A stretch of DNA of 64,000 bases, taken from the NCBI GenBank assembly GCA_036507075.1, contig DASXQR010000083.1, positions 128,001 to 192,000 of the forward strand, written 5' to 3'. Position 1 is the stretch's first letter. The number at the start of each line of letters is the position of its first letter. The stretch is from Acidobacteriota bacterium (GTDB lineage Bacteria > Acidobacteriota > UBA6911 > JACQSX01). The translations under genes were made by a program, and so were the position numbers. This document shows positions 583-62,652 of the stretch, piece by piece. The notes under the pieces were generated by a model, which had not been told where the DNA came from, made no database searches, and saw only the letters and a list, made by a program, of their open reading frames with translations.

Positions 583-700
583 GAATGCGGAATGGCGAAT
601 GAATCAGAGCTTCAAGACAAGAACCTATTTTCTTATTCCTAATTCCGCATTCGCCATTCCGCATTCCGCATTCGCCACTCCCATTCCCCATTCCGCATTC
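583..700. repeat. Palindromic heptamer-repeat element (GAATGCG / ATTCCGC family)
   Basis: Left arm gaatgcggaatggcgaat, right arm (attccgc/attcgcc)n, with a unique ~40 nt spacer; lies between coxM and coxG. Confidence 0.85.
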
Positions 701-704
701 GTAT

Positions 705-1565
705 CTAGCCCGCCGCGGCGGCCAGGATTGCTCGTCGCGCGAACACGTCCGCCATCGCGGTGCGGTATTCCGTAGAGGCATGAATGTCGCCCTGCACGTC
801 GACTCCAGCGGCCACGTCCTTGCACGCGCGCGTCACATTGCTTTCCGTCAGCGACTTGCCGCGAAGCGCCTCTTCCACTCTGGTAAGGCGAAACGCTTTC
901 GGACCCACTCCGGTAAGAGCTACAGCGATTTTCTGGCACTTGCCGCCTTCATCTTTGCTCACCACTGCCGCCGCTCCGGCAATGGCAAACCCCGAGGCCT
1001 GCTGCCGAAGCTTTTGATAGGCGGACCCTGCTCCGCGGGGAAGAGCCGGAACATGAATGGCGACGATCAGTTCTCCGGGCGACAGTGCGGTGGTGAACAA
1101 ATCGAGGAAAAAATCCACCGCCGGCACTTGCCGGCGCCCCGAGTCTCCTTCTATTTCGATCTGCACGTCGAGCGCAAGCAGCGCCGCAGGGTAATCCGCG
1201 GCTGGATCGGCGTGCGCGATGCTGCCGCCGATAGTCCCCCGGTTGCGCACCTGAACATCCCCAATTTCAGACGCTGTCTGCGGAAGCAGCGCGCACCGGT
1301 TCTTGAGTGTCTGGCTGGTTTCAATAGCTCGATGAGTTACCAGCGCTCCAATCTTGATTTTTTCTCCCTGATCCGAGATCTGGGCCAATTCCTGGATACC
1401 CCCGAGATCAATCACCTGGCGGGGCGTCGCCAGACGCAGTTTCATCATCGGCACAAGGCTGTGGCCGCCCGACAGGAACTTGGCGTCGGTTCCGTATCGC
1501 CGCGAGAGCGAAATCGCTTCCTGCGTGCTGGCAGGACTGAAATACTCAAAGGCTTCCGGAATCAT
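705..1565 (-). CDS. coxM: CoxM/CutM-like FAD-binding medium subunit of a xanthine dehydrogenase-family molybdoenzyme
   Basis: Start re-assigned to MIPEAFEY (ATG 1565, aaggagg SD, ATGA overlap with the coxL stop); motifs 'SGGHSL', 'RNRGTIGGS', 'ADPAAD'. Confidence 0.9.
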   Translation of the reverse strand: MIPEAFEYFSPASTQEAISLSRRYGTDAKFLSGGHSLVPMMKLRLATPRQVIDLGGIQELAQISDQGEKIKIGALVTHRAIETSQTLKNRCALLPQTASEIGDVQVRNRGTIGGSIAHADPAADYPAALLALDVQIEIEGDSGRRQVPAVDFFLDLFTTALSPGELIVAIHVPALPRGAGSAYQKLRQQASGFAIAGAAAVVSKDEGGKCQKIAVALTGVGPKAFRLTRVEEALRGKSLTESNVTRACKDVAAGVDVQGDIHASTEYRTAMADVFARRAILAAAAG

Positions 1566-3883
1566 TGCGCCTCCTTCTGCATCAATCTCCAGATCTTCTC
1601 CGGACGCAGCGGCATATCGATGTGCTTGACGCCAAACGGCCGCAGCGCATCCACAACAGCATTCACCAGCGCGGGTGTAGCTCCAATCGTCCCCGCTTCG
1701 CCCACCCCTTTGACGCCGAGCGGATTCACCGGCGAAGGTGTCTCGGTCCGATCCAGCTCCAGCCACGGGACATCCATCGCGCGGGGGATGGCATAGTCCA
1801 TCAGCGTGCCGGTGATCAACTGCCCGTTTTCGTCATAGACCGCCTCCTCCATGAATGCCTGGCCAAGGCTTTGGACAATGCCGCCGTGTATCTGGCCTTC
1901 AACCAGCAGAGGATTGATTACTTTGCCGCAGTCATCGACGGCGGCATATTTCAGAATTTTCACCGATCCGGTCTCGCGATCCGCCTCCACCACACAAAGG
2001 TGAGCGCCGAACGGGAAAGTAAAATTCTTGGGTTCGAAAAAATAGGTGGCGGACAAACCGGGCTCGTAGTTTTTCGGAAGATTCTTGGCGATGTGGGATG
2101 CCAGAGCCACTTCCTGAAGGGTGAGCGATTTTTCCGGATTGCTGCTGGAGTAAAACTTCCCGTCGCGGAAGGCGACCTGATTCTTTGGAAGTTTAAGCAG
2201 ATGCGCGGCCAGCACGGACGCCTTCTTGATCAGTTGCTGCACGGCACGGTAAACAGCCGTTCCGCCGACGGCCGTGGCGCGACTGCCGAACGTGCCGATG
2301 CCGTACTGCACGATTGCCGTGTCACCGTGGATCACGATGACATCGTCCAGGTCCACACCCAGCATTTCGGCGGCGATCTGGGCAAATGACGTTTCCTGGC
2401 CCTGCCCATGCGGAGATGCTCCGGTCAGCACGGTGACCTTGCCCGTGGGCTCGATGCGCACAGTGGCGCTTTCCCAGCCCCCCGCCGGCATGGCCGGCGA
2501 AGGTCCCATGGCACAAATCTCAACGTAGGTGGAAATTCCGATACCCAGGTAGCGACCCTTCTTTCGGCCCTTCTCCTGTTCGCGCCGCCACTTCTTGTAT
2601 TCTCCCAGCTTGAGCGCCTTCTTCAGCGAGGCCTCATAATTGCCGCTGTCGTAGCTCAGCCCGGTGGCAGTCGAATAGGGAAAGTCCTTTTTGGCGGGAA
2701 AATTCTTTCGACGCACCTCCACCGGATCCATGTTCAGTTCCTGAGCGACCAGATCGGCGGCTCGTTCAATCACATGCGTGGCTTCGGGCCTGCCTGCTCC
2801 GCGATAGGCGTCGGTGGCCATCTTATTGGTGAAGACGCCGGTCACGTCCATCCGAATCGCAGGAATGCGATAGGTCCCTGGCAGCATCAATCCGGTCAGG
2901 GTGGGAATGGCCGGCGTGAGCAACTGGTGGTAGGCTCCCAGGTCCGCCCAGATTTTGTAGGTGATTCCCAGAATCTGGCCGTCGTTCTTGATGGCGATTT
3001 CGACATCGCCCACCTGGCCGCGGCCGTGGATGGTGGCGGCGAAGTTCTCACTGCGCGTCTCAATCCACTTTACCGGCTTGCCGAGCTGCATGGCGATGTG
3101 TCCGAGAAGCGCTTCTTCGCCGTAGACGTTTAGTTTGCTTCCAAAACCGCCGCCCACTTCAGGAGTCACAACACGCAGGCGGTTCTCCGGCAGCCCGAGC
3201 ATGATTGCCACCTGCGTTCTCATAAGATGCGGGATTTGAGTGGACGACCAGATAGTCAGCTCTTTCTCTCCGGGGAAGTAACGGGCGATCACACCTCGCG
3301 GCTCCATGGCAACCGGGATGAGTCGCTGGTGCTCCATCCGCTGTTTGATAATCCGGTCGGCGTCCTTGAAGGCTTGTTTGACGTCGCCGCCTGAGAGCGT
3401 CCAGGTATAGGCGATGTTGTCTGAAAATTCATCGTGGATGGGCTTCGATTCGGGCGAGGCGGCCTTAATGGGGTCGACCACGGCGGCCAGCGGCTCGTAG
3501 TCGACCACCACTGCGTCGGCGGCATCACGCGCCTGATACAGGGATTGGGCCACCACAGCCACCACGGGCTCTCCGACGTAGCGGACTTTATTCAGCGCGA
3601 GCACCGGATGATGCGGCACTTTCAGATTCTCGAGCGCCCCTGCCGTCGGCACCGAGCCTACATTGCGGCAGTCTTCACCGGTGAATATCCGCACTACTCC
3701 GGGCATTTTCGAGGCGGCTGAATTATCGATGCGCCGGATCTTGGCGTGGCCATGAATGCTGCGAACAAAGGAAACGTAATGAAGATCGGGAAGCTTTATG
3801 TCATCCACGTAGTGTGCCAGCCCGCTCACCAGCCTGGGATCTTCTGTTCGCTTGACTGACTGTCCGATATAGCGCTGCGCCAT
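1562..3883 (-). CDS. coxL: CoxL-like molybdopterin-binding large subunit, form II type
   Basis: Start MAQRYIG (ATG 3883, aggagg SD); 'GGGFGSK', 'KGVGEAG', active-site loop AYRGAGR (form II, not form I AYxCSFR). Confidence 0.88.
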   Translation of the reverse strand: MAQRYIGQSVKRTEDPRLVSGLAHYVDDIKLPDLHYVSFVRSIHGHAKIRRIDNSAASKMPGVVRIFTGEDCRNVGSVPTAGALENLKVPHHPVLALNKVRYVGEPVVAVVAQSLYQARDAADAVVVDYEPLAAVVDPIKAASPESKPIHDEFSDNIAYTWTLSGGDVKQAFKDADRIIKQRMEHQRLIPVAMEPRGVIARYFPGEKELTIWSSTQIPHLMRTQVAIMLGLPENRLRVVTPEVGGGFGSKLNVYGEEALLGHIAMQLGKPVKWIETRSENFAATIHGRGQVGDVEIAIKNDGQILGITYKIWADLGAYHQLLTPAIPTLTGLMLPGTYRIPAIRMDVTGVFTNKMATDAYRGAGRPEATHVIERAADLVAQELNMDPVEVRRKNFPAKKDFPYSTATGLSYDSGNYEASLKKALKLGEYKKWRREQEKGRKKGRYLGIGISTYVEICAMGPSPAMPAGGWESATVRIEPTGKVTVLTGASPHGQGQETSFAQIAAEMLGVDLDDVIVIHGDTAIVQYGIGTFGSRATAVGGTAVYRAVQQLIKKASVLAAHLLKLPKNQVAFRDGKFYSSSNPEKSLTLQEVALASHIAKNLPKNYEPGLSATYFFEPKNFTFPFGAHLCVVEADRETGSVKILKYAAVDDCGKVINPLLVEGQIHGGIVQSLGQAFMEEAVYDENGQLITGTLMDYAIPRAMDVPWLELDRTETPSPVNPLGVKGVGEAGTIGATPALVNAVVDALRPFGVKHIDMPLRPEKIWRLMQKEAQ

Positions 3884-3891
3884 GAGACCTC

Positions 3892-4404
3892 CTATCGAGC
3901 GACTGTCTCGGGCTGTTTGTCTTCCTTCACGGCGGCCGGGGCGGCGTGCATCTTTGCGGCTGCGGAACGGATCGCCTTGACAATGTGCTGATAGCCGGTG
4001 CAGCGACATAAGTTACCCTCGATTCCGCGGCGGATTTCCTCGTCGGTGGGCTGGGTATTGTCCTGCAGCAACTGGTGCGCCGTCATGATCATTCCCGGCG
4101 TGCAATAGCCGCATTGCAAGCCGTGCTCCTCCCAGAAGGCCTGTTGTATCGGATGCAGCTTTCCATCCTTTGCCAGGGCCTCGATGGTCGTGACTTCCCT
4201 GTTGTTTGCCTGAACGGCCAGCAGGGTGCAGGATTTTACGGCTTTGCCGTCGAGCAACACCGTGCACGCCCCGCAGACCGAGGTCTCACAGCCGATGTGC
4301 GTGCCGGTAAGCTGTGCATTTTCCCGCAAAAAGTGAACCAGCAGCAGCCTCGGTTCAACATCCGCCTGATGCCTTTTTCCGTTTATTGAAAGTGAGATTT
4401 GCAT
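3892..4404 (-). CDS. coxS: CoxS-like (2Fe-2S) small subunit
   Basis: '[12 protein letters not shown]', 'QCGYCTPG' and 'GNLCRCTGY' Fe-S motifs. Confidence 0.93.
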
Positions 4405-4538
4405 TTCGAACCCCCGTCTTTTGGGCCGATCGAGTCTTAACGAAACCGGAATGTGCAGCCGATTCTATCAAAAACCCGAAAGCGAAAAGCAAATCGAATT
4501 TTCCGTGGAACGGGTGTGAAAAAGTCATGGCACAAGGA

Positions 4539-4698
4539 TTGGTCATTGGTCATTCGTCATCAGCCACCAAGTCATTGGTCATCGCTCACGGTTGTCAATT
4601 ACTCACGCCCGATGAAACCAGTGGCCTAATGACGAATGACGAATGACCAATGACCACCAATGACCAGTGACCAATGACGATTCTTGTGTCTTTGTGGT
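4539..4698. repeat. Palindromic heptamer-repeat element (GGTCATT / AATGACC family) plus a half 9-mer element
   Basis: ttggtcattggtcattcgtcat ... aatgacgaatgacgaatgaccaatgacc, followed by ttgtgtctttgtggt. Confidence 0.85.
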
Positions 4699-4712
4699 GC
4701 GAAAGGAGGGTT

Positions 4713-5375: not shown

Positions 5376-5456
5376 CGTGCAACCATTTTACCCCAGCTTC
5401 GGACACTCTTGAAGATGTTCTTGAGCGAAAAAAGGTTCATACATGGGGTCACAATT

Positions 5457-6203: not shown

Positions 6204-6231
6204 TTCGTGCCTCCGACTTAGAACATGGGGA

Positions 6232-6300
6232 AAAAATTAACCACAAAGACACAAAGGGCACAAAGAATCTTTGTGTCCTTTGTGCCTTTGTGGTGATTTT
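6232..6300. repeat. Palindromic 9-mer element (CACAAAG family)
   Basis: accacaaagacacaaagggcacaaag-aat-ctttgtgtcctttgtgcctttgtggt. Confidence 0.85.
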
Positions 6301-6309
6301 TTCAACCCC

Positions 6310-8623: not shown

Positions 8624-8673
8624 AACGGGCTACTATGGAGTTTTAGCTGTCGAATGTCGAGGACTCTTCGCTT

Positions 8674-8793
8674 ACTTACGAATGCGGATTTCGGAATGCG
8701 GAATGCGGAATAGGGCGAAAATTTGTTCCCGGCTTAGAAGAATTAAGTTGAACATATTCCGCATTCCGCATTCCGAAATCCGCATTCGTAAGT
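8674..8793. repeat. Palindromic heptamer element with perfect 39 bp inverted arms (GAATGCG family)
   Basis: 8674-8712 is the exact reverse complement of 8755-8793; 42 nt AT-rich spacer. Confidence 0.92.
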
Positions 8794-8803
8794 GATTTTG
8801 GCG

Positions 8804-9580: not shown

Positions 9581-9584
9581 TTTT

Positions 9585-11075: not shown

Positions 11076-11078
11076 TTT

Positions 11079-13337: not shown

Positions 13338-13341
13338 AAGT

Positions 13342-13576
13342 CCGCGACCACGGCCCGGATTATTTAAGAAAACCTAACCGCCAAGAACGCCAAGAACGCC
13401 AAGAGGGCGCCAAGGACGGGGGCTGAAACTTGAAGTATGAAAGTTATCAATCGTGTCAAGCGCATGCGTGGTGCCTTCATACTTCAAGTTTCAGGCCCCC
13501 GTCCTTGGCGCCTTTCTTAGCGCTCTTAGCGTTCTTGGGGTTAAGTTTTCTTGAGTAATCCGGGCCGTGGTCGCGG
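13342..13576. mobile_element. ~235 bp long-palindrome MITE-like element, copy 1 of 3
   Basis: Imperfect ~100 bp inverted arms containing (aacgccaag)n; related to 24346-24570 and 41053-41280; no ORF. Confidence 0.75.
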
Positions 13577-13580
13577 TACT

Positions 13581-14620: not shown

Positions 14621-14790
14621 TTGTGCACGAATTTAGAACACGAATTACACGAATTACACGAATTACACGAATCTTCTTAAATGACTTCTGAAATTCGTGG
14701 GAACTCGTAGAAATTCGTGCAAATTCGTGTAAATTCGTGTAAATTCGTGTTTCAAATTCGTGTTTCAAATTCGTGTTTGTAAATTCGTGC
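14621..14790. repeat. Palindromic 9-10-mer tandem element (ACACGAATT / AAATTCGTGT family)
   Basis: (acacgaatt)x4 facing about eight aaattcgtg units, between divergent cysK and VWA genes. Confidence 0.9.
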
Positions 14791-14796
14791 TTAATA

Positions 14797-15911: not shown

Positions 15912-16406
15912 CTATTTGCCTCCCCGAGGCCGAGATGGCGGCCCGGGTGGCTGCCAGAGCAGAGGGCTGGGCTTTGACTGCTCGATGCTCCCCGCGGGGC
16001 GAAGACGGCGCGCGCTCCTGGACGGCGCTCTCCTCCTGCTTGTTCGGGCCCTATCTTTTTTCCGTTCTACTTTGTCCTCATCGCGCACGGAATTTTTTTT
16101 CGGATCTGGACGACGAGGGATTCCAACCAGCGCCTGTTTTGTAACCGGGACCTCGAGCCGCCCTTCGACCGCCGTCTCCGGCTGCGGGGGCTGCCAGTGC
16201 GTCGTGTAGGAAACGCGCGCCCGGCGCAGTTCCGGCAGTGAGGCATTGGAGTATTTTCGCGCGGATTGCTTCTGCGGATCTGTCTTTTTTGCCAGCTCCA
16301 CGATGCTGACCAGCGCCTGCGCCGGATCTTCCTTTTGAACGGCAAACCCTTGGGAATACAGTCCGCCCGTGAGCAGCAGATAACAAAGTGAATTCAGCGT
16401 CTTCAT
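15912..16406 (-). CDS. Hypothetical protein, possibly exported, with basic Pro/Arg-rich C-terminus
   Basis: Strong SD aaggaggtgag upstream of ATG 16406; hydrophobic N-terminus; no recognisable domain. Confidence 0.55.
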   Translation of the reverse strand: MKTLNSLCYLLLTGGLYSQGFAVQKEDPAQALVSIVELAKKTDPQKQSARKYSNASLPELRRARVSYTTHWQPPQPETAVEGRLEVPVTKQALVGIPRRPDPKKNSVRDEDKVERKKDRARTSRRRAPSRSARRLRPAGSIEQSKPSPLLWQPPGPPSRPRGGK

Positions 16407-16481
16407 CGCGCTCACCTCCTTTCGATGGGACATAACCGGCCTGCCGCCGATTCCACGAAAAAAAGTTACAATAGCCGTCGC

Positions 16482-19329: not shown

Positions 19330-19466
19330 TTGCCACGAAGACACGATGGCACGAAGATCCATCAATTTCATTTGGAAGTGCCACTGTTCCGCACTGAACG
19401 TTTTTTTCTGAGGGGTTACTTCAAAACAAAATACTGATCCTTCGTGTCTTGGCGCCTTCGTGGCAA
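19330..19466. repeat. Palindromic 8-mer element (GCCACGAA family)
   Basis: ttgccacgaagacacg ... cgtgtcttggcgccttcgtggcaa; spacer related to that of 57166-57302. Confidence 0.8.
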
Positions 19467-22740: not shown

Positions 22741-22834
22741 TTTCACCGCAGAGTCGCCGAGATCGCCGAGGTCTCGCAGAGTTGCAGTCCAGACTCTGCG
22801 AAATCTCAGCGTACTCTGCGCCTCGGCGGTGAAA
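22741..22834. repeat. Palindromic 9-mer element (CGCCGAG / CGCAGAG family)
   Basis: tttcaccgcagagtcgccgag ... ctctgcgcctcggcggtgaaa; sister copy at 53126-53216. Confidence 0.85.
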
Positions 22835-23336: not shown

Positions 23337-23453
23337 CAGTACCGCGGTGCGTGAGCCCGCGGCGCGCGCATCACGGTGATCTGATCGATTGGAGCGCCGC
23401 TTATCCTCAGGCCGATCGATGCGTGCGCCGCGGGCTCACGCACCGCGGTACTG
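23337..23453. repeat. REP/REPIN-like inverted pair
   Basis: 36 nt arms 23337-23372 and 23418-23453 (35/36 complementary); each arm has an internal ccgcgg hairpin; between convergent HIT and prmC. Confidence 0.8.
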
Positions 23454-23487: not shown

Positions 23488-24342
23488 TTATCGCAGCCGG
23501 GCCACCAAGCATCGCGGGATTCCATTCAGGTCAGGGTACACGTACAGGTCGCCCCAGCGCGCACCGAAAAGTGACTGCACCGCGTCTTGCTGACCATACC
23601 CGATCTCCAGGATCAGCCATCCGGCCCCCGCCAGTCGCCCTTCGGCCAGCGGCACGATGCGCTTAAAGAAGGAAATCCCTTTATCGGGGGCGAACACGGC
23701 CAGGGCGGGTTCGTGCTCCCGCACATCCTCGGCGACGCGAGGATCCAATTGGGAAACGTACGGCGGATTGGAAAAGATTGCGTCCAGCGGCGCAGCGGTT
23801 TCGGGCAGCAGGTCCGTCTCGACGAATTTGATCCTTTCCAACACTCCGTGTGCGCAGGCATTCTCCCGCGCAATCCGCAACGCCGCAGCCGATGCGTCCG
23901 TTGCCAGTACGAAAGCGGATGGAATCTCTGCTGCCAGGGAAACCGCAATACAGCCGCTGCCGGTGCCGATATCAGCCAGCCTGCAGGATTCTCGTCTTGG
24001 TGTCTCTTGCGCCTGGAAAATCGCGATGCCTTTCTCCACCAGCAGTTCCGTTTCAGGCCGCGGGATCAGCACGGCAGAGGAGACGACAAATTCGCGCCCG
24101 TAGAACTCTCTTCGTCCGGTAATGTAGGCCAGCGGTGTTCGGGATGCGCGCCGTTGCACCCAATCAAGAAACTTCTCGCGATCCTGATCCTGCAACTGAA
24201 AATCATAATGAGTCAGGATCCAGGTCAAGTCCCGGTCCAGAATCCTGGAAAGAAGAAGGCGCGCATCAAGCTGCGCGTCCTGGATGCCGGCCGTCTTGAG
24301 CTTTGAGCCGGCCTGGCGAAGCAGTTCCTGAATGGTGGCCAT
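23488..24342 (-). CDS. prmC: Release factor glutamine methyltransferase
   Basis: 'VLIPRPETE', 'DIGTGSGCIA', 'SNPPY'; follows prfA. Confidence 0.95.
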   Translation of the reverse strand: MATIQELLRQAGSKLKTAGIQDAQLDARLLLSRILDRDLTWILTHYDFQLQDQDREKFLDWVQRRASRTPLAYITGRREFYGREFVVSSAVLIPRPETELLVEKGIAIFQAQETPRRESCRLADIGTGSGCIAVSLAAEIPSAFVLATDASAAALRIARENACAHGVLERIKFVETDLLPETAAPLDAIFSNPPYVSQLDPRVAEDVREHEPALAVFAPDKGISFFKRIVPLAEGRLAGAGWLILEIGYGQQDAVQSLFGARWGDLYVYPDLNGIPRCLVARLR

Positions 24343-24345
24343 CGG

Positions 24346-24570
24346 TCGCTAGTCCGGATTATCCAAAAACTTCACCGCGAAGAGCGCTAAGAACGCCAAG
24401 ATAGCGCGGGGTAACGGCCTGGAGCTCAAAGCATGAAGGCCAACGCAAAAAGAAATGACATGCAATCCTTAATTAGCCTTCATGCTTTGAGCTCCAGGCC
24501 GTTACCCCGCGCTATCTTGGCGTTCTTAGCGCTCTTCGCGGTGAAGTTTTTGGATAATCCGGACTAGCGA
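24346..24570. mobile_element. Long-palindrome MITE-like element, copy 2: perfect 95 bp inverted arms with a 35 nt loop
   Basis: 24346-24440 is the exact reverse complement of 24476-24570; fills the prfA-prmC gap. Confidence 0.85.
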
Positions 24571-24582
24571 TCGATGACCAGG

Positions 24583-30348: not shown

Positions 30349-30410
30349 TTTTACCACCAGGGCACCAAGGCACAAAGCGAGCAATGGTGCCTTGTGTCTT
30401 GGTGGTAAAA
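30349..30410. repeat. Palindromic 8-9-mer element (CACCAAGG family)
   Basis: ttttaccaccagggcaccaaggcac ... gtgccttgtgtcttggtggtaaaa. Confidence 0.8.
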
Positions 30411-30622
30411 TTTTTTCCGATACGAATCCCCGATGCTTCCCATTGTCAAGCGATTTTTTCTCGACGGAAATCTCTTGAAATCCGCTCTGGACGCGGGTTT
30501 CAGAAGGCAGAAATTCCAAAAAAAATTTTTTGGTTTCTTGTTGAAAATCATCTCTTCGATTTGCTAGTTTTACTCACTCAAATTCTCAGGACCGAGCAAG
30601 ACACTAAAAGAGAACAAGCCAC

Positions 30623-30654
30623 TTTTCCACACCTGTGCATAACGTTGTGGAAAA
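30623..30654. promoter_or_regulatory. DnaA-box cluster upstream of dnaA (oriC part 1 / autoregulation)
   Basis: TTTTCCACA 30623-30631, TGTGCATAA 30634-30642, TGTGGAAAA 30646-30654. Confidence 0.85.
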
Positions 30655-30785
30655 CCAAAATTAAAATTTGAGTTTTTGGCTGGTTTTGCCCCCGCTTTCC
30701 AGCCTTCCCCGTTGAAGCGATTCTCCGGGTCAATCTCGGAGTGTTTGTTTCAGCGATGATTGTGTCTTCGGCTTTTTTTCGTGCT

Positions 30786-32093
30786 ATGAATCTGTGGGAA
30801 ATCCTGCTATCGAAGATACAAAAGAAGATCAGCCATCAGAATTTTGACACTTGGTTTAAGCCTTTGCTCTACCTCGGCGAGTGCGAAGGCAAACTTCTGG
30901 TGCAGGTGCCGAACGGCCATTTTCGATCCTGGCACTTGGAGAACTACGACAGGCTAATGCGGCGATCTCTGGACGAAGTAGGCGTGCCGGGAGACATTCG
31001 GTTTGTGCTTCCGGATGAGAATCAGGCGAATTCCTCCACCAGCGATAATCTGGTCCCGGTTCAATCTCCCACCGAGCCCCTCAATCTTAATTCCAAATAC
31101 ACTTTTGAAACTTTCGTGGTCGGCTTTTCCAACCAGTTTGCGCATGCTGCTGCGCTGGCAATCGCCGAGCAGCCTTCCAAGGCCTATAACCCGCTTTTTA
31201 TTTATGGGGGAGTGGGACTGGGCAAGACTCACCTGATGCATGCCATCGGCCACTGCATCCTGAAAAAATATCCGCGGGCAAAACTCACTTATATGTCTTC
31301 GGAACGTTTCATGAACGAGCTGATTAATTCAATTCGCTACGATCGAACCCTTCAGTTCCGCGACAAATATCGAAATATCGATGTTCTGTTGATGGACGAC
31401 ATCCAGTTTCTGGCAGGCAAGGAGCGCACGCAGGAGGAGTTTTTTCACACTTTTAACGCTCTTTACGATGCCCAGAAACAAATCGTCATTTCCAGCGACT
31501 GCCCGCCCAAGGAAATCCCCACTCTTGAGGAACGGCTGCATTCGCGCTTCGAGTGGGGGTTAATCGCCGATATCCAGCCGCCCGATCTGGAAACCAAAAT
31601 CGCCATACTGCGTCGCAAAGCTGAAATGGAGGGAATAGTTCTACCCGACGACGTCGCCTTTTTCATTGCAAGCAACATCAAGTCAAACATCCGGGAACTG
31701 GAAGGATCGCTGGTGCGACTGATCGCCTATTCGTCTCTAACCGGCATGGACATTGAACTCTCGCTGGCCCAGGAGGTACTGAAAAACATTGTGGGAGATA
31801 CGCAGCGAGCAATTTCCATCGAACTGATTCAAAAAACAGTTGCGGAGTTTTTTAATTTAAAGGTTTCCGAGCTGAAGGCAAAAAACAATTCTCGATGCGT
31901 CGCAGAGCCGCGCCAGATCGCCATGTACATCTGCAAGGAACTCACCGATTGCTCTCTGCCCCAGATTGGCCGTGAGTTTGGCGGAAAACATCACACGACA
32001 GTCCTTCATTCCATCAGAAAGATCGACGAAATGCGCAAAGTGGACAAGAATGTCAACGGCGTGATCAATAAGCTCGTTGGGTCCATACGCTGA
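30786..32093 (+). CDS. dnaA: Chromosomal replication initiator DnaA
   Basis: Start MNLWEILL; Walker A '[10 protein letters not shown]', 'DDIQF', 'QEEFFHTFN', 'GGKHHTTV'. Confidence 0.98.
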
Positions 32094-32099
32094 CTTTTC

Positions 32100-32300
32100 C
32101 TTGTTTTTAACAGTAGTTGCTGTGGACAGGTTGTGGAAAAGGGGGGCTCCTAAGTTTTTCCGCCACTTCCTACGGAAAGTCCACCATGGGGCGTGCGACT
32201 TATAAACAGCGCAACTTATCTGGTCGCTGGTTTTAAGTCTTTTTTCCACGAATCCACAGGTGCTACTATTTCTACTAGTTTTTAAAGAATAATTAATAAA
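32100..32300. promoter_or_regulatory. Probable oriC unwinding region between dnaA and dnaN
   Basis: Boxes TGTGGACAG 32121, TGTGGAAAA 32132, TTTTCCACG 32242, GAATCCACA 32250; CTACTATTTCTACTA trio-like tract 32263-32277; AT-rich tract to 32300. Confidence 0.85.
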
Positions 32301-32320
32301 GACGGAAAACAGGAGCAGTG

Positions 32321-33427: not shown

Positions 33428-33588
33428 GTTACGAGTTTGCGGGTTGGCGAGTTACGGGTTAAGCCGGTTACGAATCCCAAACAGAAATCGACAGAACATA
33501 AAACCTCAAAACACACTAACCCGAAACCCGCCAACCCGAAACCAGTAAACCCGCCAACCCGAAACGCAAACCCGCCAACCAGTAACGG
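33428..33588. repeat. Palindromic 7-8-mer element (GGGTT / AACCCG family)
   Basis: gttacgagtttgcgggttggcgagttacgggtt ... (aacccgaa/aacccgcc)n, between dnaN and recF. Confidence 0.85.
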
Positions 33589-37322: not shown

Positions 37323-37335
37323 TAGTGGTTTTTCA

Positions 37336-37524
37336 CGTTGGCGGGTTTACACGTTGGCGGGTTTACGGGTTTCGGGTTTCTGCTGAACTTCCAAAGGTCG
37401 CAAACCTTAACCCGGTAGCCGGAACCGGTAAACCTACACCCGTGAACTTGAAAACTCGAAACCCGTAAACCCGTAAACTCGTAACCCGTAAACCCGTAAC
37501 CCGTGAACCCGTAACTAACTCGTT
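37336..37524. repeat. Palindromic 7-8-mer element (AACCCGTA family) between gyrB and gyrA
   Basis: acgttggcgggtttac x2 ... (aaacccgt)n; same unit family as 33428-33588. Confidence 0.85.
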
Positions 37525-40005: not shown

Positions 40006-40601
40006 ACAGGTGGGTAACCGCACTGAAGCAGTGGGCCTCAGCGGTAAAAACGTGGGGGTACGCCGTCTGGCAAAAGATTATGCCCATGCTGAAAGGAATT
40101 GACTGGTCAGATCCGCGCACCTGGGGAATCGTATCGGTAGCGGCAATTCTCCTGATCGTGCTGATTTGGCTGATCGTGCGCGCCGCGCGGCGCAAGCGCC
40201 CGGATCTGGGCGAAAGAAGATCGGCCGGGATGCCTCCGGAGGCGAGGATCACGGCAAAGCAGTTTGAGAAGACTCTGGACAACCTGAAGCAGGATGAGCC
40301 CCAGTTTGTCGAATTGATCAGCTCTATTTTGAAGCATCGCAGTGTTGATCAGTTGCTCAGCCACGATGAAATCAGCACCGCTTTCGGCCGGCTCACTGAA
40401 ATCCAGGAAAGGAGCGGCCAGGCGCCTAAAAAGCGGACCAGCCTTCTTGCTCTCGACGAAAACCCCGGCACGTGGAAGGAAAAGAACGCGGCGATGCTGA
40501 CGGTGGTTCGCAGTTGCTACGGCAACGAGGCCATCTATTCAAAGCTGGATGAGAAGGGCCGCCGCCTTGTCGACCAGTTCCTCGACAGCGTCACTACCTG
40601 A
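40002..40601 (+). CDS. Hypothetical single-pass membrane protein coupled to gyrA
   Basis: ATGA overlap with the gyrA stop; TM '[18 protein letters not shown]' followed by a basic stop-transfer sequence. Confidence 0.75.
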
Positions 40602-40693
40602 TTTCGGATTGGCGAATGCGGAATGCGGAATTGGAGCGCTCGACCATCCGGTTTCTTTATTCCGCATTCGACATTCCCCAATCCGCATTCGGA
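40602..40693. repeat. Palindromic heptamer element (GAATGCG family)
   Basis: cggattggcgaatgcggaatgcggaat ... attccgcattcgacattccccaatccg. Confidence 0.8.
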
Positions 40694-41052: not shown

Positions 41053-41280
41053 AGCCAAGCCCGGCTAATTCAAAAGCATTAACCGCCAAGAGCGCCAAGA
41101 ACGCTAAGACCCGCGGGGGATAACAGCCTGGAGCCTAAATCATGAAGGCCCCATTAGAATTGCATGTCGGCATTCTTTTGCGTTGGCCTTCATGATTTAG
41201 GCTCCAGGCTGTCATCCCCCGCTATCTTGGCGTTCTTGGCGCTCTTGGCGGTGAAGTTTTTGAATTAGCCGGGCTTGGCT
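41053..41280. mobile_element. Long-palindrome MITE-like element, copy 3 (inverted relative to copy 2)
   Basis: ~95 bp arms; the reverse complement of its loop (caacgcaaaagaatgccgacatgcaatt) matches the copy 2 loop (caacgcaaaaagaaatgacatgcaat). Confidence 0.85.
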
Positions 41281-42618: not shown

Positions 42619-42667
42619 GTCTTGGTGCCTTGGTGGTTGAAAAAAATGAACCACAAAGGCACCAAGC
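42619..42667. repeat. Inside-out 8-9-mer palindrome
   Basis: cttggtgccttggtggtt-gaaaaaaatg-aaccacaaaggcaccaag. Confidence 0.7.
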
Positions 42668-42706
42668 TAACCTTACGCTTGGGTGCAGTAGGGACGCTCA
42701 GAGAAG

Positions 42707-43552: not shown

Positions 43553-43603
43553 TAAATTTTTGTGTCCTTTGTGTCTTTGTGGTGAAAAAGTCATAGATGA
43601 CAG

Positions 43604-52965: not shown

Positions 52966-53125
52966 AATGTTTCGGTGGTGGGACTATTGTTTCACCACCG
53001 AGACACGGACGTCACAGTAGCCCCGCGACTCATTCTCGTAAACGTAAGTCGCAGGCCACCCACAGAGCTGCGGCCGGAAGGGCGTATTGCCCAAATCGGA
53101 ACAGAATGGAGACGGCTACATTATG

Positions 53126-53216
53126 TTCACCGCAGAGCCGCCGAGAACGCCGAGTTTCCGCAGAGTTTCATCACAACCTCAGCGAAACTTGGCGTTCTCG
53201 GTGGCTCTGCGGTGAA
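53126..53216. repeat. Palindromic 9-mer element (CGCCGAG family)
   Basis: ttcaccgcagagccgccgagaacgccgag ... cttggcgttctcggtggctctgcggtgaa. Confidence 0.85.
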
Positions 53217-53347
53217 GGCAACATGCCCGTCTACGGCCGGCTTCGATTCGGTTGCGGCTCTGATGGTAGAGTCGACCCCCCTTGGGAATGAGCGCGAATT
53301 ACAGAATACCGAAGTGGCAATCTGGAGAGTCCCTCTTCGGTTGAGTT

Positions 53348-53815: not shown

Positions 53816-53824
53816 CGGTTTTGA

Positions 53825-55078: not shown

Positions 55079-55111
55079 GTCGTTAAATTGAATGGCAACG
55101 GTCGGGCATCG

Positions 55112-56440: not shown

Positions 56441-56637
56441 CGCAAATCTTTCCCCAATACCGCAGCACGTTTGCGCCTCGAGTTACACACAGAAACTTCA
56501 CGCGCAGACCCAGCCGTTTATTGTAACATTGGCAGCCCCATCCGGGCGATGGGTCGGGTAGATCGCAAGAAACCGAAGCTGGCCGAAGAAATTGCCGCCC
56601 ATAAAGTGGCAGCACAACTGCTATTTCCCTTCGCCAT

Positions 56638-57162: not shown

Positions 57163-57165
57163 CAG

Positions 57166-57302
57166 CGAGCCACGAAGCCACGAAGCCACGAAGATCGGAC
57201 GGTTTGTTGGAAGTGGCACTTCAGCATTCACCCATAACATTAAGCAGGAGTGCAACTCAAACCCATGTCGCCCTCTTCGTGGCTTCGTGGCTTCGTGGCT
57301 CG
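57166..57302. repeat. Palindromic 8-mer element (GCCACGAA)x3 arms
   Basis: cgagccacgaagccacgaagccacgaag ... cttcgtggcttcgtggcttcgtggctcg. Confidence 0.88.
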
Positions 57303-57340
57303 ACGTGCTGCCGACTCGTTGCCGGATCAGAAACAGCGCG

Positions 57341-58095: not shown

Positions 58096-58101
58096 AGGAT
58101 C

Positions 58102-58210
58102 AAATGCGGATTTCGGAATGCGGAATGTGGAATATGAGAGTGAATTGGTGTCAGCTTCGCAGTTTTAGCCTGGAAATATTCCGCATTCCCCCATTCCGAA
58201 ATCCGCATTT
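58102..58210. repeat. Palindromic heptamer element (GAATGCG family)
   Basis: aaatgcggatttcggaatgcggaatgtggaatat ... atattccgcattccccattccgaaatccgcattt; arms nearly identical to 8674-8793. Confidence 0.88.
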
Positions 58211-58218
58211 ATATTTCG

Positions 58219-58668
58219 TTATTTAGTCGGCATGATAATTACGCGGCGGTTGTCCCCAAAGCCCTGGCTTTCGGTTTTCACCTGCGGGTCTTCCACCAGC
58301 GTCAAATGAACGATGCGTCGCTCGCTGGCCGGCATAGGCTGGAGAGGAAAAGGGCGCTGGGAAATCTTCACTTTCTCTGCAGCCTTCTTGGCGAGCAGTT
58401 CCAGCTCATATGAGCGGAGCGCCCGAAAGTCATTGCAGTCCAAAAGGATTCGCGACTCCTCTCTGTCGCCAAAAATCAGATTTACCAGGTATTCGATCGA
58501 ATAGAGAACCTTGCCGCCGTTGGCCAGCAGCATGTCGATCTCCTCCTCACCGTGGATATCCAGGATTTCCTGGCCGTCCTTGTTCTTCCAGTCCAGGCTC
58601 GCTTTGACTCCGAAGTGATGCAGTATCTTGCCTACAAAAGCACTCGCTTCCTCTTTTCTTTCAAACAT
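58219..58668 (-). CDS. jag: Short Jag/EloR-like protein (KH-like plus R3H)
   Basis: R3H 'ERRIVH', 'TESQG..DNRRV'; downstream of yidC. Confidence 0.85.
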   Translation of the reverse strand: MFERKEEASAFVGKILHHFGVKASLDWKNKDGQEILDIHGEEEIDMLLANGGKVLYSIEYLVNLIFGDREESRILLDCNDFRALRSYELELLAKKAAEKVKISQRPFPLQPMPASERRIVHLTLVEDPQVKTESQGFGDNRRVIIMPTK

Positions 58669-58671
58669 AGG

Positions 58672-60327
58672 TTATTCCTTATCTGTCTTTCCACCGCGTC
58701 GCCCGGGCTTGGGCGACGGCGCCGGAACCGGCATCCACTTCTCGGCCGCTTTCTGCAGGGCCATGCCGAACAGGTTGCTGAATAAGAAGTAGATTACCAG
58801 CCCGCTGGGAAACTTAAAAAACATAAAGACGAATATAAACGGCATCATGTTCATCATGCGCGCCTGAGCCGGATCGGTGGTCGTCTGCGGTGTCATGCGC
58901 TGCTGCAGGTACATGGTCACGCCCATCAGAACCGGGGTCACATAATAGGGATCCATACGGGAAAGATCGCGAATCCATAATATGAAGGGCGCGCCGCGCA
59001 GCTCTATCGTGGAAGCAAGCATTGAATTGAAGGCAAACAGAAAAGGCATCTGGATCAGCAGCGGCAGACAGCCGCCGAGAGGGTTAATCCCGTTCTGCTT
59101 GTACAGGTTCATGATTTCGGCATTCATTTCCTGTCGCTTCGGATCGGTGCGCTTGTACTTTTTGTAGCGATCCTGGATGGACCGCATCTGCGGCTGAATA
59201 GCCTGCATTTTCTTCATCGATACCATCTGTTTGTAGCGCACCGGGAACAGCGCAAGGCTGATGATCAGCGTCAGCAGGATGATCGCAAAACCCCAGTTTT
59301 GAACATACTGGTGGATCAGTTTAAGTGAGAAAATCAGCGGCTTTACCAGCAGGGCAAACCAGCCGTAGTCGATAACGCTGCTGAGGCCCGGCGCCACGCC
59401 GTTTAACAACTCATAATCCTTGGGTCCCAGAAAGAACCGCACCGGTTTGGCGCCCAACGGATAAAAAATCTGGTAATAGGGAACAAAGAGCCCGCCGCCT
59501 TGCCTGATGTCAAACCGCTGCATGCGAAGTGAAGGGAATGCTTCGGCGCTGACTCCCAGTACGGCAAAATACTTGGTATCGAAGCCCGCCCAGTCCACCG
59601 GCTCCGAATAATTATGGTTCTTTCCTTTGGCAAAACCGGATCGCTCGACTCGTCCGCCATGGCTCACAATCACCTCACGCACTTCAAAGTCCGTCTCCGG
59701 TTCGCCGGCCTCAGTTCCAATGTCGGGGCCGACTGAGACAGCCAGAGCGCGGGGCTGGCCTGCGATCCAAAGGCGTCCGGAAACTTCGATCGCATAGAGG
59801 TTGGGCTCGAATGCCATCTTCTTTTCCACTGCGATCCCGCCGTCGGAATAGGCGAACAAAAGCTCAATGGGCGGCATGAAGCTGGACTGCTGCGCCGGCA
59901 GGTTTCCGACTCGCAGCTCGTACACGGCATTGCTGAGGCGCTGCGTCAGCGAAGGACTGCCGGGAACCTCCAAAGCCAGATAGGGCAAACCTTGCGGCGG
60001 GATTTTCTGCGGCACCAGCTCCAGCGGCTCGTGGGACTTGCTCATGAATTTCTTGAGGCGAAAGCTTCTCAGGACACCACCCTGTGTATCAACCGCGGCG
60101 CGGTAGAGGGCATTTTCAATCACTACGGTGCGACGAGTGCCGGCGGTCTTTACATTGTCCATCGGCGCAGGCGCCGGCGGCGGGAGCGGGGGCGGCGCGG
60201 GTTTGGCGGCAACCGGTTTAGCTTCCGGGGCGGGCTGCGGCGGATAGAGCTTGCGCATCGCATATTGCGTTCCCAGCAGGATCGCGATTGAGAGTACTAC
60301 TGCAATCAGCAGGCGTCGTTCTTCCAT
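58672..60327 (-). CDS. yidC: Membrane protein insertase YidC
   Basis: Start MEERRLL; 'DYGWF', 'NWGFAIILLT', 'GGCLPLLIQMP', 'WIRDLS'. Confidence 0.96.
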   Translation of the reverse strand: MEERRLLIAVVLSIAILLGTQYAMRKLYPPQPAPEAKPVAAKPAPPPLPPPAPAPMDNVKTAGTRRTVVIENALYRAAVDTQGGVLRSFRLKKFMSKSHEPLELVPQKIPPQGLPYLALEVPGSPSLTQRLSNAVYELRVGNLPAQQSSFMPPIELLFAYSDGGIAVEKKMAFEPNLYAIEVSGRLWIAGQPRALAVSVGPDIGTEAGEPETDFEVREVIVSHGGRVERSGFAKGKNHNYSEPVDWAGFDTKYFAVLGVSAEAFPSLRMQRFDIRQGGGLFVPYYQIFYPLGAKPVRFFLGPKDYELLNGVAPGLSSVIDYGWFALLVKPLIFSLKLIHQYVQNWGFAIILLTLIISLALFPVRYKQMVSMKKMQAIQPQMRSIQDRYKKYKRTDPKRQEMNAEIMNLYKQNGINPLGGCLPLLIQMPFLFAFNSMLASTIELRGAPFILWIRDLSRMDPYYVTPVLMGVTMYLQQRMTPQTTTDPAQARMMNMMPFIFVFMFFKFPSGLVIYFLFSNLFGMALQKAAEKWMPVPAPSPKPGRRGGKTDKE

Positions 60328-60539
60328 CAGATTACCGGATCGTAACCGCCGCGAGAAAACGGATGACAGCGCAGCACCCGCTTGATTCCCAGGTAGGTTC
60401 CCGTAAGGACGCCCTTCTTCTGCACGGCCTGATAGAAGTATTCCGAACACGTGGGCACAAACCTGCAGGAAACAGGCAGGAGCGGCGACAGGAAACGCTT
60501 ATAGGCTGTCAGCAGAAAAAGTATAAGGCGCTTAATCAT
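60327..60539 (-). CDS. yidD: Membrane protein insertion efficiency factor
   Basis: 'CRFVPTCSEY', 'RCHPF..GGYDP'. Confidence 0.95.
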   Translation of the reverse strand: MIKRLILFLLTAYKRFLSPLLPVSCRFVPTCSEYFYQAVQKKGVLTGTYLGIKRVLRCHPFSRGGYDPVI

Positions 60540-60904
60540 CAGATGGAGTTGGAGCGCTTCCCCAGGCGACCCAGCACGTTTTGGAATTCCTCGCGCAGCG
60601 GGGCAAATTCCACCTGAGCCGCGCCTTTTCGGGCATTGATCACCAGGTCCATGGACGGAAGGTTGGCAGGCTTGTCACGCCTGAATATTTCGCGCAAGCG
60701 CCGTTTCACTCGATTGCGCGCCACGGCGTTTCCTATTTTCCTGGAAACGGTAATTCCCAGCCGGTGAAACGGCAGGTTGTTCTCCATGGCGTATAACACA
60801 AAAGTCCGCGATTGAATCTTTTTGCCCTTGTCATAGACGGCCAGAAACTCCCGCCTTTTTGCCATGCGCTGGCGGCGGGGGAGGCGCTCGTTAACATTAG
60901 CCAC
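60539..60904 (-). CDS. rnpA: Ribonuclease P protein component
   Basis: '[25 protein letters not shown]' RNR motif. Confidence 0.95.
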
Positions 60905-61037
60905 TAACCGTCAGCCTCTGACGCCCTTTGGAACGCCGGCGTTTCAGTACGTCCTTACCGCCTTTTGTCGCCATCCGTTCCCGAAACCCGTGTGTCTTCT
61001 TCCGCCGGCGATTGTTCGGCTGAAATGTGCGTTTCAT
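60897..61037 (-). CDS. rpmH: 50S ribosomal protein L34 (not in the supplied ORF track; 46 aa)
   Basis: Manual translation [46 protein letters not shown]. Confidence 0.97.
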
Positions 61038-61070
61038 AGAGAGTTCGCTCCTGATTTTGAGAAAACCCCA

Positions 61071-61100
61071 ATCTTAGCCGCCGTCCGGCAAGACTGTCAA
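61071..61100 (-). promoter_or_regulatory. Candidate sigma70 promoter of the rpmH operon
   Basis: Minus strand TTGACA-18 nt-TAAGAT. Confidence 0.6.
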
Positions 61101-61150
61101 TTCAAGTTGACGAGTAGTGATCTAGTTTGACTGCCAGTCGGGAAAGTGAT

Positions 61151-61304
61151 TTCACCACAGGGACACAGGGTTGTCGGTTGTCCGTTGCCAGTTTGTGAAC
61201 TCCTGGCAACCAGTATGCAAGAACCACTGACAACGGACCACGGGCAACGGACAATTCTGTGTCCCCTGTGTCCCTGTGGTGAAGTCTTTGTTCGACTTTC
61301 GACC
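61151..61304. repeat. Nested palindrome: CACAGGG 9-mer arms around an ACAACGG/ACTGACA heptamer element
   Basis: ttcaccacagggacacaggg [gttgtccgttgccag...actgacaacggacc] cctgtgtccctgtggtgaa, followed by ttcgactttcgacc. Confidence 0.85.
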
Positions 61305-61355
61305 TGATTTGCCGTTATTTTCGGTAAGGTTGTATCATGATGGCGGGTAATCGAC

Positions 61356-61955
61356 ATGAAGAGATTCGGCGCATTGATTCTTGCGGCCGGCGAGTCGCGA
61401 CGCATAGGATATCCAAAAGCGCTGCTGCGGTGGGAGGATCAGTCTTTCCTGGAAAAAATCATAGAAACATTGCGCGCGTCGCGCGTCGATGAGATCCACG
61501 TTGTGGTCTCGACGGCCGGCGAGGCGCTGCTGCGACAGCATCTGCACCTGCCGGGAGTGCGTTTGGTGGTGAATCCCGACCCGTCAAGGGGCCAGTTTTC
61601 TTCCCTGCAGGAGGGACTCCGAAATCTCGACGCCGACGTTGTGCTGATCTGCCTGGTAGATCATCCCAAAGTGAGTGCGTCAGTGGTGTTCGAGCTGAAG
61701 GAGGCGTGTATTGCAACGGATGCTCTGGCCGTCATTCCGCGCTTCCAGGGAAGGCGCGGGCATCCGATCGCCATCAAGAAAGATTTAATCTCGCTGATGC
61801 TGGACGCCCCCGCCGGGGCCAGCGCCAAAGAGGTTCTGCGAACCTGCTGGGACAAAGTGATGGAGCTGGATACTAAAGACGCCGGCATCCTTGCCGACAT
61901 TGACACGGCGCTGGACTATGAAGAATTCCTCGGAGAAGAGTTCCCGCACGCATAA
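61356..61955 (+). CDS. mocA: MocA-like nucleotidyltransferase (molybdenum cofactor cytidylyltransferase)
   Basis: 'ILAAGESRR.G.PKALL', 'GQFSSL..G', 'LVDHP', 'RGHP', 'DIDT..DY'. Confidence 0.8.
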   Translation: MKRFGALILAAGESRRIGYPKALLRWEDQSFLEKIIETLRASRVDEIHVVVSTAGEALLRQHLHLPGVRLVVNPDPSRGQFSSLQEGLRNLDADVVLICLVDHPKVSASVVFELKEACIATDALAVIPRFQGRRGHPIAIKKDLISLMLDAPAGASAKEVLRTCWDKVMELDTKDAGILADIDTALDYEEFLGEEFPHA

Positions 61956-62502
61956 CCTGGAGGAGGCCGCGACCGCTGCGTTGTTCATCACGGCTGCGGG
62001 CTTTTCAATCTTCCTCGCAAGGAACCTTCAGTATCGGACGGCTTACGCGCTGGCAGCCATCCTGGTGCTGTTTGCGTCAGTGACGGTACTCGAACTGGTG
62101 TTACGCAACAGGCCGAACAGGGCGAAACTGCTGTCGCGCATTTCGGGAATCATTTTTCTTGCTTACTTTTTCGCATTCTTTGTCGCCGGCCTGGTTCTGT
62201 GGGGCCGTTTCAGCAATCCCGTCTTTCAAACCCGGTTGCTGGTTTTTGCTGCCGCCTGCCTGGCTCTAATGGCGGCGGTACACGCGCGCAAGCACTTCTC
62301 CGACGCGAGCTACCACCAGAAGATGCTGCACTCGAACACTTTCTATTTCGGCCTGGTCTTTGCCATGTCTGTATTCATGATGAAGTACCGCGACCCTTCC
62401 AAGGTTGACGCGATCGGAATAGTATCACTGGGTCTATTCAGTCTTCTGCAAGCCGTAACCCTGCTCAAGGCACCGCCCGCCTTAAAAAAGTCGAAAGTCT
62501 GA
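61918..62502 (+). CDS. Hypothetical polytopic membrane protein
   Basis: About six hydrophobic segments; start uncertain; stop codon lies inside the downstream repeat. Confidence 0.65.
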   Translation: MKNSSEKSSRTHNLEEAATAALFITAAGFSIFLARNLQYRTAYALAAILVLFASVTVLELVLRNRPNRAKLLSRISGIIFLAYFFAFFVAGLVLWGRFSNPVFQTRLLVFAAACLALMAAVHARKHFSDASYHQKMLHSNTFYFGLVFAMSVFMMKYRDPSKVDAIGIVSLGLFSLLQAVTLLKAPPALKKSKV

Positions 62503-62652
62503 AAGTCGTCCGTTGCCAGTGGTCCGTTGTCAGTGGTCCGCTGTCAGTGACCCGTTGTCGGTGGTTCTGCATACTGCTCGTCAGGAGTGACAACTGACAA
62601 CGGGCCACTGACAACGGACGACCTTCGACTTTCGACCTTTAGACTTTCGACC
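62490..62652. repeat. Nested palindrome: GTCGAAAG arms around an ACTGACA/ACAACGG element
   Basis: gtcgaaagtctgaaagtcg [tccgttgccagtggtccgttgtcag...actgacaacggacg] cgactttcgacctttagactttcgac. Confidence 0.85.

Follow-up and report, generated by a model that had tools for sequence, protein, structure and literature searches.

Repeat hairpins probably tied to natural transformation

In Neisseria, SsnA cuts transforming single-stranded DNA (ssDNA) at its repeats (PMC11893778), and in Escherichia coli the RAYT gene yafM is among the genes that Sxy induces at competence, as cited in PMC5581495. Other intergenic repeats, in Geobacter, Xanthomonas/Nostoc and Beggiatoaceae, have been read as regulator sites, G-quadruplexes or RNA-binding sites (PMC2700814, PMC4692102, PMC4679880), and the four-helix-bundle family PF05635 has no known catalytic role as far as the account in PMC4990558 goes. 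Here we describe inverted tandem-repeat elements in a 64,000-nt stretch of an Acidobacteriota genome (assembly GCA_036507075.1, contig DASXQR010000083.1, positions 128,001 to 192,000; "the window"), each made of short tandem units, a spacer and reverse-complement units. An earlier note on the window had read them as non-autonomous members of a hairpin-based mobile system.

We propose that these palindromes are gene-less members of cassette families that act and multiply on ssDNA in natural transformation, and we give this reading a probability of about one half. The cassettes are likely tied to transforming DNA since their leaders share a promoter-like sequence with DNA-uptake genes. The established part comprises arms and polarity common to gene-less and gene-bearing copies, deletion intermediates, turnover at orthologous gaps and a shared upstream motif.

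Gene-bearing cassettes and gene-less elements

A census with 15 hand-written unit patterns, scored against the reversed genome as a control, finds 2,757 arrays genome-wide, compared with 67 on the reversed genome. Within 250 nt of each other, arrays form 598 inverted pairs of one polarity, while the opposite polarity is absent (0 pairs) for 13 of the 15 unit families; the CACAAAG family additionally forms 113 end-to-end pairs. Family searches of the genome give 9 matches to PF05635, 6 to PF13366 and 12 to PF01797. Six four-helix-bundle (PF05635) loci lie within 6-8-mer arms (GAGGCAG, GTCCGTG, GTCATTG, GACGTG, CGGGTTT and GGGAGAGT), and five GxxExxY loci lie within arms of CGCCAAGAA, CACGAATT, CACCAAGA, CACAAAGA or CACGGAT. 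The arms of these gene-bearing copies have the polarity of the gene-less pairs, and the enclosed genes, neither of which is a known transposase, code for proteins that match TIGR02436 and TIGR04256. Two internally deleted four-helix-bundle cassettes, on contigs C82 and C192 of the genome under study (G000; C numbers denote its contigs and other G numbers comparison genomes), keep their arms and leader.

The earlier note had suggested that similar tracts flank four-helix-bundle and GxxExxY genes in other genomes, and such flanks are seen both in this genome and in many phyla. At four-helix-bundle loci elsewhere, a repeated 6-mer occurs on both sides in inverted orientation in 98/126 cases and in direct orientation in 14/126, with 1/43 at dprA/radC loci; these values replace a first unit-sharing control (120 vs 64 of 132) that was too lenient. 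GxxExxY loci elsewhere share an inverted word in 7/25 cases vs a direct one in 2/25. Across genomes, 7-mer arms pair with four-helix-bundle genes and CAC/CGC-AAG 8-10-mers with GxxExxY genes. The co-variation of protein and unit is weak (Mantel r -0.14, n 117; p 0.11 for GxxExxY), kin not being independent, and arm units are similar chiefly where the proteins exceed 60% identity, a pattern which fits co-inheritance.

In 26 aligned GxxExxY copies, the G-x-x-E-x-x-Y, D and E-x-K residues are kept. The GxxExxY model has a restriction-endonuclease-like fold of the PD-(D/E)XK type (best Z 7.9, rmsd (root-mean-square deviation) 3.1, 95 aligned; Z 7.8 for Cas4, 4IC1), a prediction that does not in itself establish what the protein does. 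The structures 2GSC and 2RLD, each of five chains, match the four-helix-bundle profile. DUF559, another candidate partner, has 0 matches in the genome. As an Ssn-type partner, one small GIY-YIG open reading frame (ORF; G000:C5:1190-1396, L319) was considered and rejected, having neither tandem arms nor the motif described below; this Ssn-like ORF lies directly behind a tRNA-like sequence and is followed by a partial copy of that sequence. A four-helix-bundle cassette with TCAGAAG-type arms in a comparison genome (L082, G015) apparently lies inside 23S rRNA-like sequence and would then be a genuine intervening sequence built on the same plan.

The spacers of 427 elements fall into 247 that belong to families and 180 that are unique. 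Spacers common to different unit families are found, and nested arms also occur. A comparison of the arms of 593 elements shows ragged ends and, in 42 elements (7.7 expected), a best match to the element's own other arm. As these matches sometimes include locus-unique flank, they suggest that arms are copied by fold-back in place. The mirror symmetry of the outer 20 nt is barely above control in most unit families. Between the arms of a GTCCGTT element lies a 389-aa ORF (G000:C152:122511-123982), as if an insertion sequence had targeted the hairpin; we take its product to be IS4-family transposase-like.

A promoter-like motif shared with DNA-uptake genes

A motif consisting of TTCGYR, 17 nt and GTTATGT in an A/T-rich context is present in 19 of the 20 cassette and Y1 loci examined. 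In most cassettes it lies within the left arm, with which it would travel. A matrix built from the 19 cassette leaders finds 60 genome sites that score at least 20 bits, compared with none on the reversed genome. Among the genes behind these sites are comEA, comEC, comF, comM, dprA, radC, ssb, recA and a GspH-type pilin gene, and also recG, recQ, uvrD and an ERCC4 nuclease gene, a set which matches the known competence regulons of streptococci and Haemophilus. In the reverse test, training on these 13 host genes alone gives a matrix that recovers all 19 cassette leaders (63 genome sites vs 0 in the control). At 13 of the 60 sites an ATG stands 5 nt behind the downstream box, as in leaderless promoters, and together with the box spacing these ATGs fit a sigma-type promoter. 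We consider it very probable that the cassettes are co-regulated with competence genes within this family.

The presence of recA, ssb, recG, recQ, uvrD and the ERCC4 nuclease gene among the targets could also be accounted for by a LexA-independent DNA-damage or stress regulon that includes uptake genes, with the elements using ssDNA from repair or replication. This is hardly to be expected of a gene set in which comEA, comEC, comF, comM, dprA, radC and the pilin gene carry the motif while lexA, two uvrA genes and dinB do not, and we regard it as very improbable.

Eight short ones among the 12 Y1 matches also carry the motif, so that RAYT/IS200 genes share it with the cassettes and the competence genes. 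The tandem-unit system appears for this reason to be linked to REP (repetitive extragenic palindrome)/RAYT. The separation from GTAG REP/RAYT drawn in the earlier note therefore holds for the units, which differ from GTAG REPs, but not for the promoter-like motif. Alternatively, HUH enzymes (RAYT/IS200) or some other mobile element could move every hairpin in trans, and the four-helix-bundle and GxxExxY genes would be passengers which picked up the promoter with the cassette. Such an arrangement would suit the motif-bearing Y1 genes, the nested arms, the spacers common to different unit families and the missing catalytic role of PF05635 in the cited part of PMC4990558. However, the palindromes on either side of the RAYT/IS200 genes are non-tandem and peculiar to these genes, and tandem arrays stand at a greater distance, at C85 and C122; unit class tracks protein family across genomes; and the conserved GxxExxY residues would not be expected of a passenger. 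This explanation is accordingly judged improbable.

Several observations concern the motif and its surroundings. On G000:C17 (L046:10860-12094), an ECF (extracytoplasmic function) sigma gene and the zinc-finger/TPR anti-sigma gene behind it form a candidate regulator pair, with recG and further motif sites close by; a 25-bit motif copy overlaps the sigma gene at its 3' end, shortly before the anti-sigma start. Seven motif-led ORFs (L032, L033, L035, L038, L040, L042, L043) have no or weak family matches; they include a pair of coiled-coil paralogues encoded around the ERCC4 gene of C28 and, on C146, an IrrE/ImmA-like fragment. Two long Y1-domain proteins (~410 aa; G000:C225:22040-23278 and C201:1068-2282) have an N-terminal extension and carry the motif. 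The 164-aa ORF behind the window's one motif copy has a signal-peptide-like start and is a candidate unknown competence gene, with no Pfam or NCBIfam match and no Atlas match at 0.9.

Placement and turnover

With a crude ORF mask, 982 of 2,124 gaps genome-wide hold an array, and 85 of the 2,757 arrays lie deep inside long ORFs. The median distance of arm starts is 18 nt from stop codons vs 70 nt from start codons under the same mask, and elements are found in 158/406 divergent vs 229/420 convergent gaps. The 7-mer arrays peak at 4-5 units, a peak that is partly fixed by the detection threshold. These features, the five chains of the solved homologue 2GSC and the cutting of intervening-sequence hairpins by RNase III described in PMC4990558 would agree with a system that works at the RNA level, in which the hairpins would serve mRNA as terminators, as targets of RNase III or as tracts to which proteins bind, and a pentameric four-helix-bundle protein would bind the tandem units of transcripts and so retune core operons in competence. 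We find this improbable, slightly more so than movement by HUH enzymes, as it leaves insertion and turnover, the mirror-duplicated flanks and a partner with a predicted DNase fold unexplained.

Neutral slippage, or plain terminators with no partner protein, could be invoked for the unit number, which ranges from 2 to over 20 per array, and for the unique spacers. As a sole explanation this is refuted by the fixed polarity, the hundreds of dispersed copies per unit, the spacers that belong to families, the empty orthologous gaps and the gene-bearing copies. Array length is probably still set by slippage.

The orthologous gaps have been compared with those of relatives at the family level or beyond. 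The dnaN-recF gap is 2-12 nt long in six relatives, and in G001 another hairpin stands there. Across 15 relatives the gyrB-gyrA gap ranges from 6 to 436 nt, being empty in at least four and filled with other units in several. Between prfA and prmC, G001 and G003 likewise have units other than the one seen here. These comparisons support the view that the elements are lineage-specific insertions. In an independent soil run (X2, not the likely source sample), one contig spans the dnaN-recF element with 3 differences, and this element is therefore no assembly artefact; most other elements break the soil-run contigs and are unbridged. The earlier note had named fixation at orthologous sites, a lack of ORF-bearing copies and absence from raw reads as grounds for giving up its reading. 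Instead, relatives have empty gaps or other units, ORF-bearing copies exist and an element is found in an independent soil run.

Elements of the window

Tandem Repeats Finder, an inverted-repeat scan and direct reading of the gaps give 21 tandem-unit elements between 581 and 62652, including one half element and two nested ones, together with two non-tandem palindromes, a GTAG-type REP doublet and one plain palindrome (Table 1). The more than 20 elements and at least seven units of the earlier note are borne out, as every unit that it named is found in the window and the architecture is the one it described. Its statement that they occupy most intergenic gaps comes down to a little over half: in a gap set based on a hand-made gene list, 36 gaps measure at least 45 nt, and 20 of these fold as DNA with z < -3 (25 shuffles per gap). 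The core-operon neighbours that it listed are recovered for dnaN, recF, gyrB, gyrA, prfA, prmC and the molybdo-enzyme genes, but coxG is not named at E 1e-25. No mobilising enzyme was found in the window, in agreement with the earlier note: transposase, RAYT, four-helix-bundle and GxxExxY genes turned up neither among 46 window ORFs nor in family searches. The mirror symmetry of the CGCCAAG element in the prfA-prmC gap extends into locus-unique flank. DnaA-box clusters lie on either side of dnaA (30620-30740 and 32090-32320) and are likely oriC; the gap downstream of dnaA folds, yet it has no tandem-unit element.

Table 1. Tandem-unit elements and other features of the window
Feature	Positions	Strand	Remarks
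GAATGCG/ATTCCGC element	581..703		3' end of coxM-like gene
GTCATTG/AATGACC element	4538..4680		unit GTCATTG also frames four-helix-bundle gene at G000:C225:58748
CACAAAG element	6232..6302		CACAAAG unit class flanks GxxExxY genes
GAATGCG element	8674..8793		arms of 39 nt, perfect
CGCCAAGAA element	13342..13576		long arms; CGCCAAGAA unit flanks GxxExxY at G000:C83:12873
ACACGAATT element	14627..14789		unit class flanks GxxExxY at G000:C140:9337
CACGAAG element	19330..19466		
CGCAGAG/CGCCGAG element	22741..22834		
CGCCAAG element	24336..24580		prfA-prmC gap; 108-nt arms, 97% complementary
CACCAAG element	30351..30410		
CGGGTT/AACCCG element	33428..33587		dnaN-recF gap
CGGGTTT/AACCCGT element	37330..37515		gyrB-gyrA gap; unit also flanks four-helix-bundle gene at G000:C73
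GAATGCG element	40600..40690		
CGCCAAG element	41053..41280		long arms
CACCAAG/CACAAAG element	42621..42669		reverse (end-to-end) polarity
Half element, CTTTGTG units	43559..43590		
CGCAGAG/CGCCGAG element	53125..53217		
GCCACGAA element	57166..57302		arms of 29 nt, perfect
GAATGCG element	58101..58213		
Nested element	61151..61283		outer arms CACAGGG, inner arms GTCCGTT/ACAACGG
Nested element	62487..62652		outer arms AAAGTCG, inner arms GTCAGTG/ACTGACA
Classical GTAG-type REP doublet, not tandem-unit	48214..48333		matches both flanks of RAYT-like gene G000:C88:75569-76111
GC-rich non-tandem palindrome	23337..23453		~32 loci in genome
Competence-type promoter motif, window's one copy	16426..16468	-	upstream of 164-aa ORF 15912-16406

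The promoter link in other genomes

A strict motif pattern has 34, 44, 8, 22 and 0 sites in five genomes of the family, 1 site among 26 other genomes and 0-2 in controls. In family relatives, the host-trained matrix finds the motif at 12/14 cassettes and 6/6 dprA/radC genes, compared with 1/19 other ORFs (p 3e-6). Genomes outside the family show the link only weakly.

A four-helix-bundle cassette lies directly behind dprA in five of five Terriglobales-type genomes, which between them use three different arm units, and in two family relatives a GxxExxY remnant stands behind dprA (2/27 dprA loci of the host's class). In the Terriglobales-type set, a CRP-type box is found as a palindrome at comM in 4/4 cases. 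Further Terriglobales-type cassettes, leaving out the five seed loci and the five dprA-linked copies, carry it in 6/19 cases vs 3/72 controls (p 0.002), and in G032 the CRP-type site of one cassette, read on the opposite strand, is identical to that of comM. In L260-L264 (G031-G035), the first arm unit overlaps the dprA stop codon and resembles the last 7 nt of the gene, hinting at cassette insertion by microhomology. In L066 (G023), a four-helix-bundle cassette seems by eye to lie directly behind a gene ending in a ComEA-like helix-hairpin-helix (HhH), and in family f6 (L092-L102, L105) the dprA leaders share another, CGNGAAACA-like word in place of the motif.

The retention of a cassette behind dprA in all five Terriglobales-type genomes, the competence promoter-like motif of the cassette leaders and the share of gaps that hold an array could also point to a domesticated transformation filter. 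Here the repeats would mark kin DNA, competence-induced proteins would cut or protect incoming strands for the host, and the spread of the repeats would be a by-product. In line with this, the knockout of SsnA is described as giving ~5-fold more transformation with NTS-bearing DNA (PMC11893778). The filter is partly compatible with multiplication on transforming ssDNA, but we think it unlikely, as the elements look more selfish than domesticated: frameshifts, truncations or deletions affect many cassette genes, and the unit families, 15 of them side by side, turn over between relatives.

A number of results weigh against the proposal that the palindromes are gene-less cassettes multiplying in transformation. 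In this genome no gene-bearing copy was found for GAATGCG, the largest 7-mer family, nor for AAAGTCG, GAGGGATG, CGCAGAG or CGCGAAAG, and coding remnants in gene-less spacers are limited to 1/427, a truncated cassette. The four-helix-bundle and GxxExxY genes, which lie between the same arms as the gene-less spacers, are at most candidates for the autonomous partners that the earlier note had suggested. The motif is upstream of 0/34 sigma-70 region-2 matches, which gives no lead to a sigma factor by autoregulation, and no convincing empty alleles within the species were found in the soil runs, where the repeat joints are explained by other copies or organisms. Outside the family, the host-trained matrix finds 5/37 cassettes and 8/37 dprA/radC genes against 3/95 controls; a refined matrix finds 11/37 cassettes, with some spurious AT-rich matches; unsupervised motif discovery in dprA/radC leaders did not converge (3/37 vs 5/95); and 80 cassettes from many phyla are without the motif, often simply behind a host gene. 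The five Terriglobales-type genomes were picked by eye for the CRP-type box, their cassette leaders showing TCACA, and their dprA adjacency may be one ancestral event; a cassette behind dprA is absent from 25/27 dprA loci of the host's class. The CRP-type box in the same set is missing from dprA (0/5) and HhH genes (0/12) and occurs at comEC in 1/4 cases.

Proposed mechanism

The biochemical steps of the transformation-coupled mechanism are all a proposal from comparative sequence data. The motif would be an alternative-sigma promoter that is induced at competence, and incoming single strands would fold into hairpins at the elements. The GxxExxY protein would cut at its own arms, the four-helix-bundle ring would bind its own arms with no cutting, and the RAYT/IS200 enzymes would work on their own palindromes. 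Co-induced DprA, RecA and ComM might then use short homology to place these ends, cut or folded, near the 3' ends of genes. Expected outcomes would be new copies, nested arms and occasional mirror-duplicated flanks, as well as an altered integration efficiency of repeat-bearing DNA.

A broader and distinctly more tentative suggestion is that PF05635 and GxxExxY are two widespread families of competence-induced, repeat-specific ssDNA factors, which with RAYT and Ssn would form one class of transformation-coupled hairpin replicators, rewired to the uptake regulator of each host (the sigma-type motif here, the CRP-type box in Terriglobales). The four-helix-bundle ring would then be a non-catalytic adaptor feeding the repeat to DprA/RecA, and such an adaptor, if real, would account for bacterial heptamer repeats and 23S intervening sequences.

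If the proposal is true, it joins three old unknowns: the intergenic tandem heptamers, the function of the four-helix-bundle and GxxExxY genes, and the timing of RAYT action. It names one condition, competence, and one substrate, single-stranded cognate arms, and the motif allows a competence promoter and its regulon to be predicted in a family of uncultured Acidobacteriota. Should GxxExxY cut single-stranded repeats specifically, it would be a second site-specific ssDNA nuclease family beside Ssn.

Comparison with known systems

No description of a link between competence and four-helix-bundle or GxxExxY cassettes was found in searches of an open-access library. The closest parallel is Ssn with its SRM/NTS repeats, where PMC11893778 likewise describes a small gene in inverted repeats, hundreds of gene-less intergenic copies, one repeat type per protein type and a link to natural transformation. 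That link is known by experiment for Ssn, whereas here it is drawn solely from the shared promoter-like motif. Ssn is a GIY-YIG protein with single 20-50 nt hairpins in the same account, unlike the PF05635 and predicted PD-(D/E)XK GxxExxY proteins and the tandem 7-10-mers of the present elements.

REP/REPIN-RAYT systems are also extragenic inverted doublets near gene 3' ends in high copy (PMC5581495, 10.1101/2021.07.10.451892), and they have a competence tie as well, through yafM there (PMC5581495) and through the motif shared with GTAG REP/RAYT here. In contrast to them, the 21 tandem-unit elements lack the GTAG/CGTC tag and have variable spacers, and tandem arms flank non-HUH genes, not RAYT; only the GTAG doublet at 48214 matches RAYT flanks.

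The paired 7/8-mers of Geobacter metallireducens (PMC2700814), GGGAATC in Xanthomonas/Nostoc (PMC4692102) and TAACTGA in Beggiatoaceae (PMC4679880) resemble the present arrays in being tandem 7-8-mers between genes; many of them are paired, one on each strand, and they have some four units and lie close to stop codons. The portions of these papers used here name no partner gene or competence link, and unlike those repeats, 15 unit families coexist in this genome. ORF-bearing 23S rRNA intervening sequences (S23p/PF05635) are similar in having inverted repeats around a four-helix-bundle ORF and in being sporadic and horizontally spread, as outlined in PMC4990558. They differ from the cassettes of this genome, which have their own promoter-like motif and hundreds of gene-less relatives; all of these cassettes, like the window elements, sit between protein genes, not in 23S rRNA.

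Integron cassettes acquired from transforming ssDNA, as presented in PMC12614218, share the principle that hairpin sites on incoming single strands move small cassettes, which is only proposed here; the present elements have no integrase or attC structure and are dispersed, not arrayed. DNA uptake sequences and uptake signal sequences (DUS/USS) have one motif per lineage and are frequent in coding regions, unlike the 15 almost entirely intergenic unit families. Set beside MITEs, the elements show ragged ends in the arm comparison and, in their gene-bearing copies, enclose PF05635 or GxxExxY. By analogy, the element system would work like Ssn/NTS and REP/RAYT and differ from them in protein family and repeat form. 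The observation itself is real, and what it presents is a variant form of the pairing of a repeat with a small ssDNA protein.

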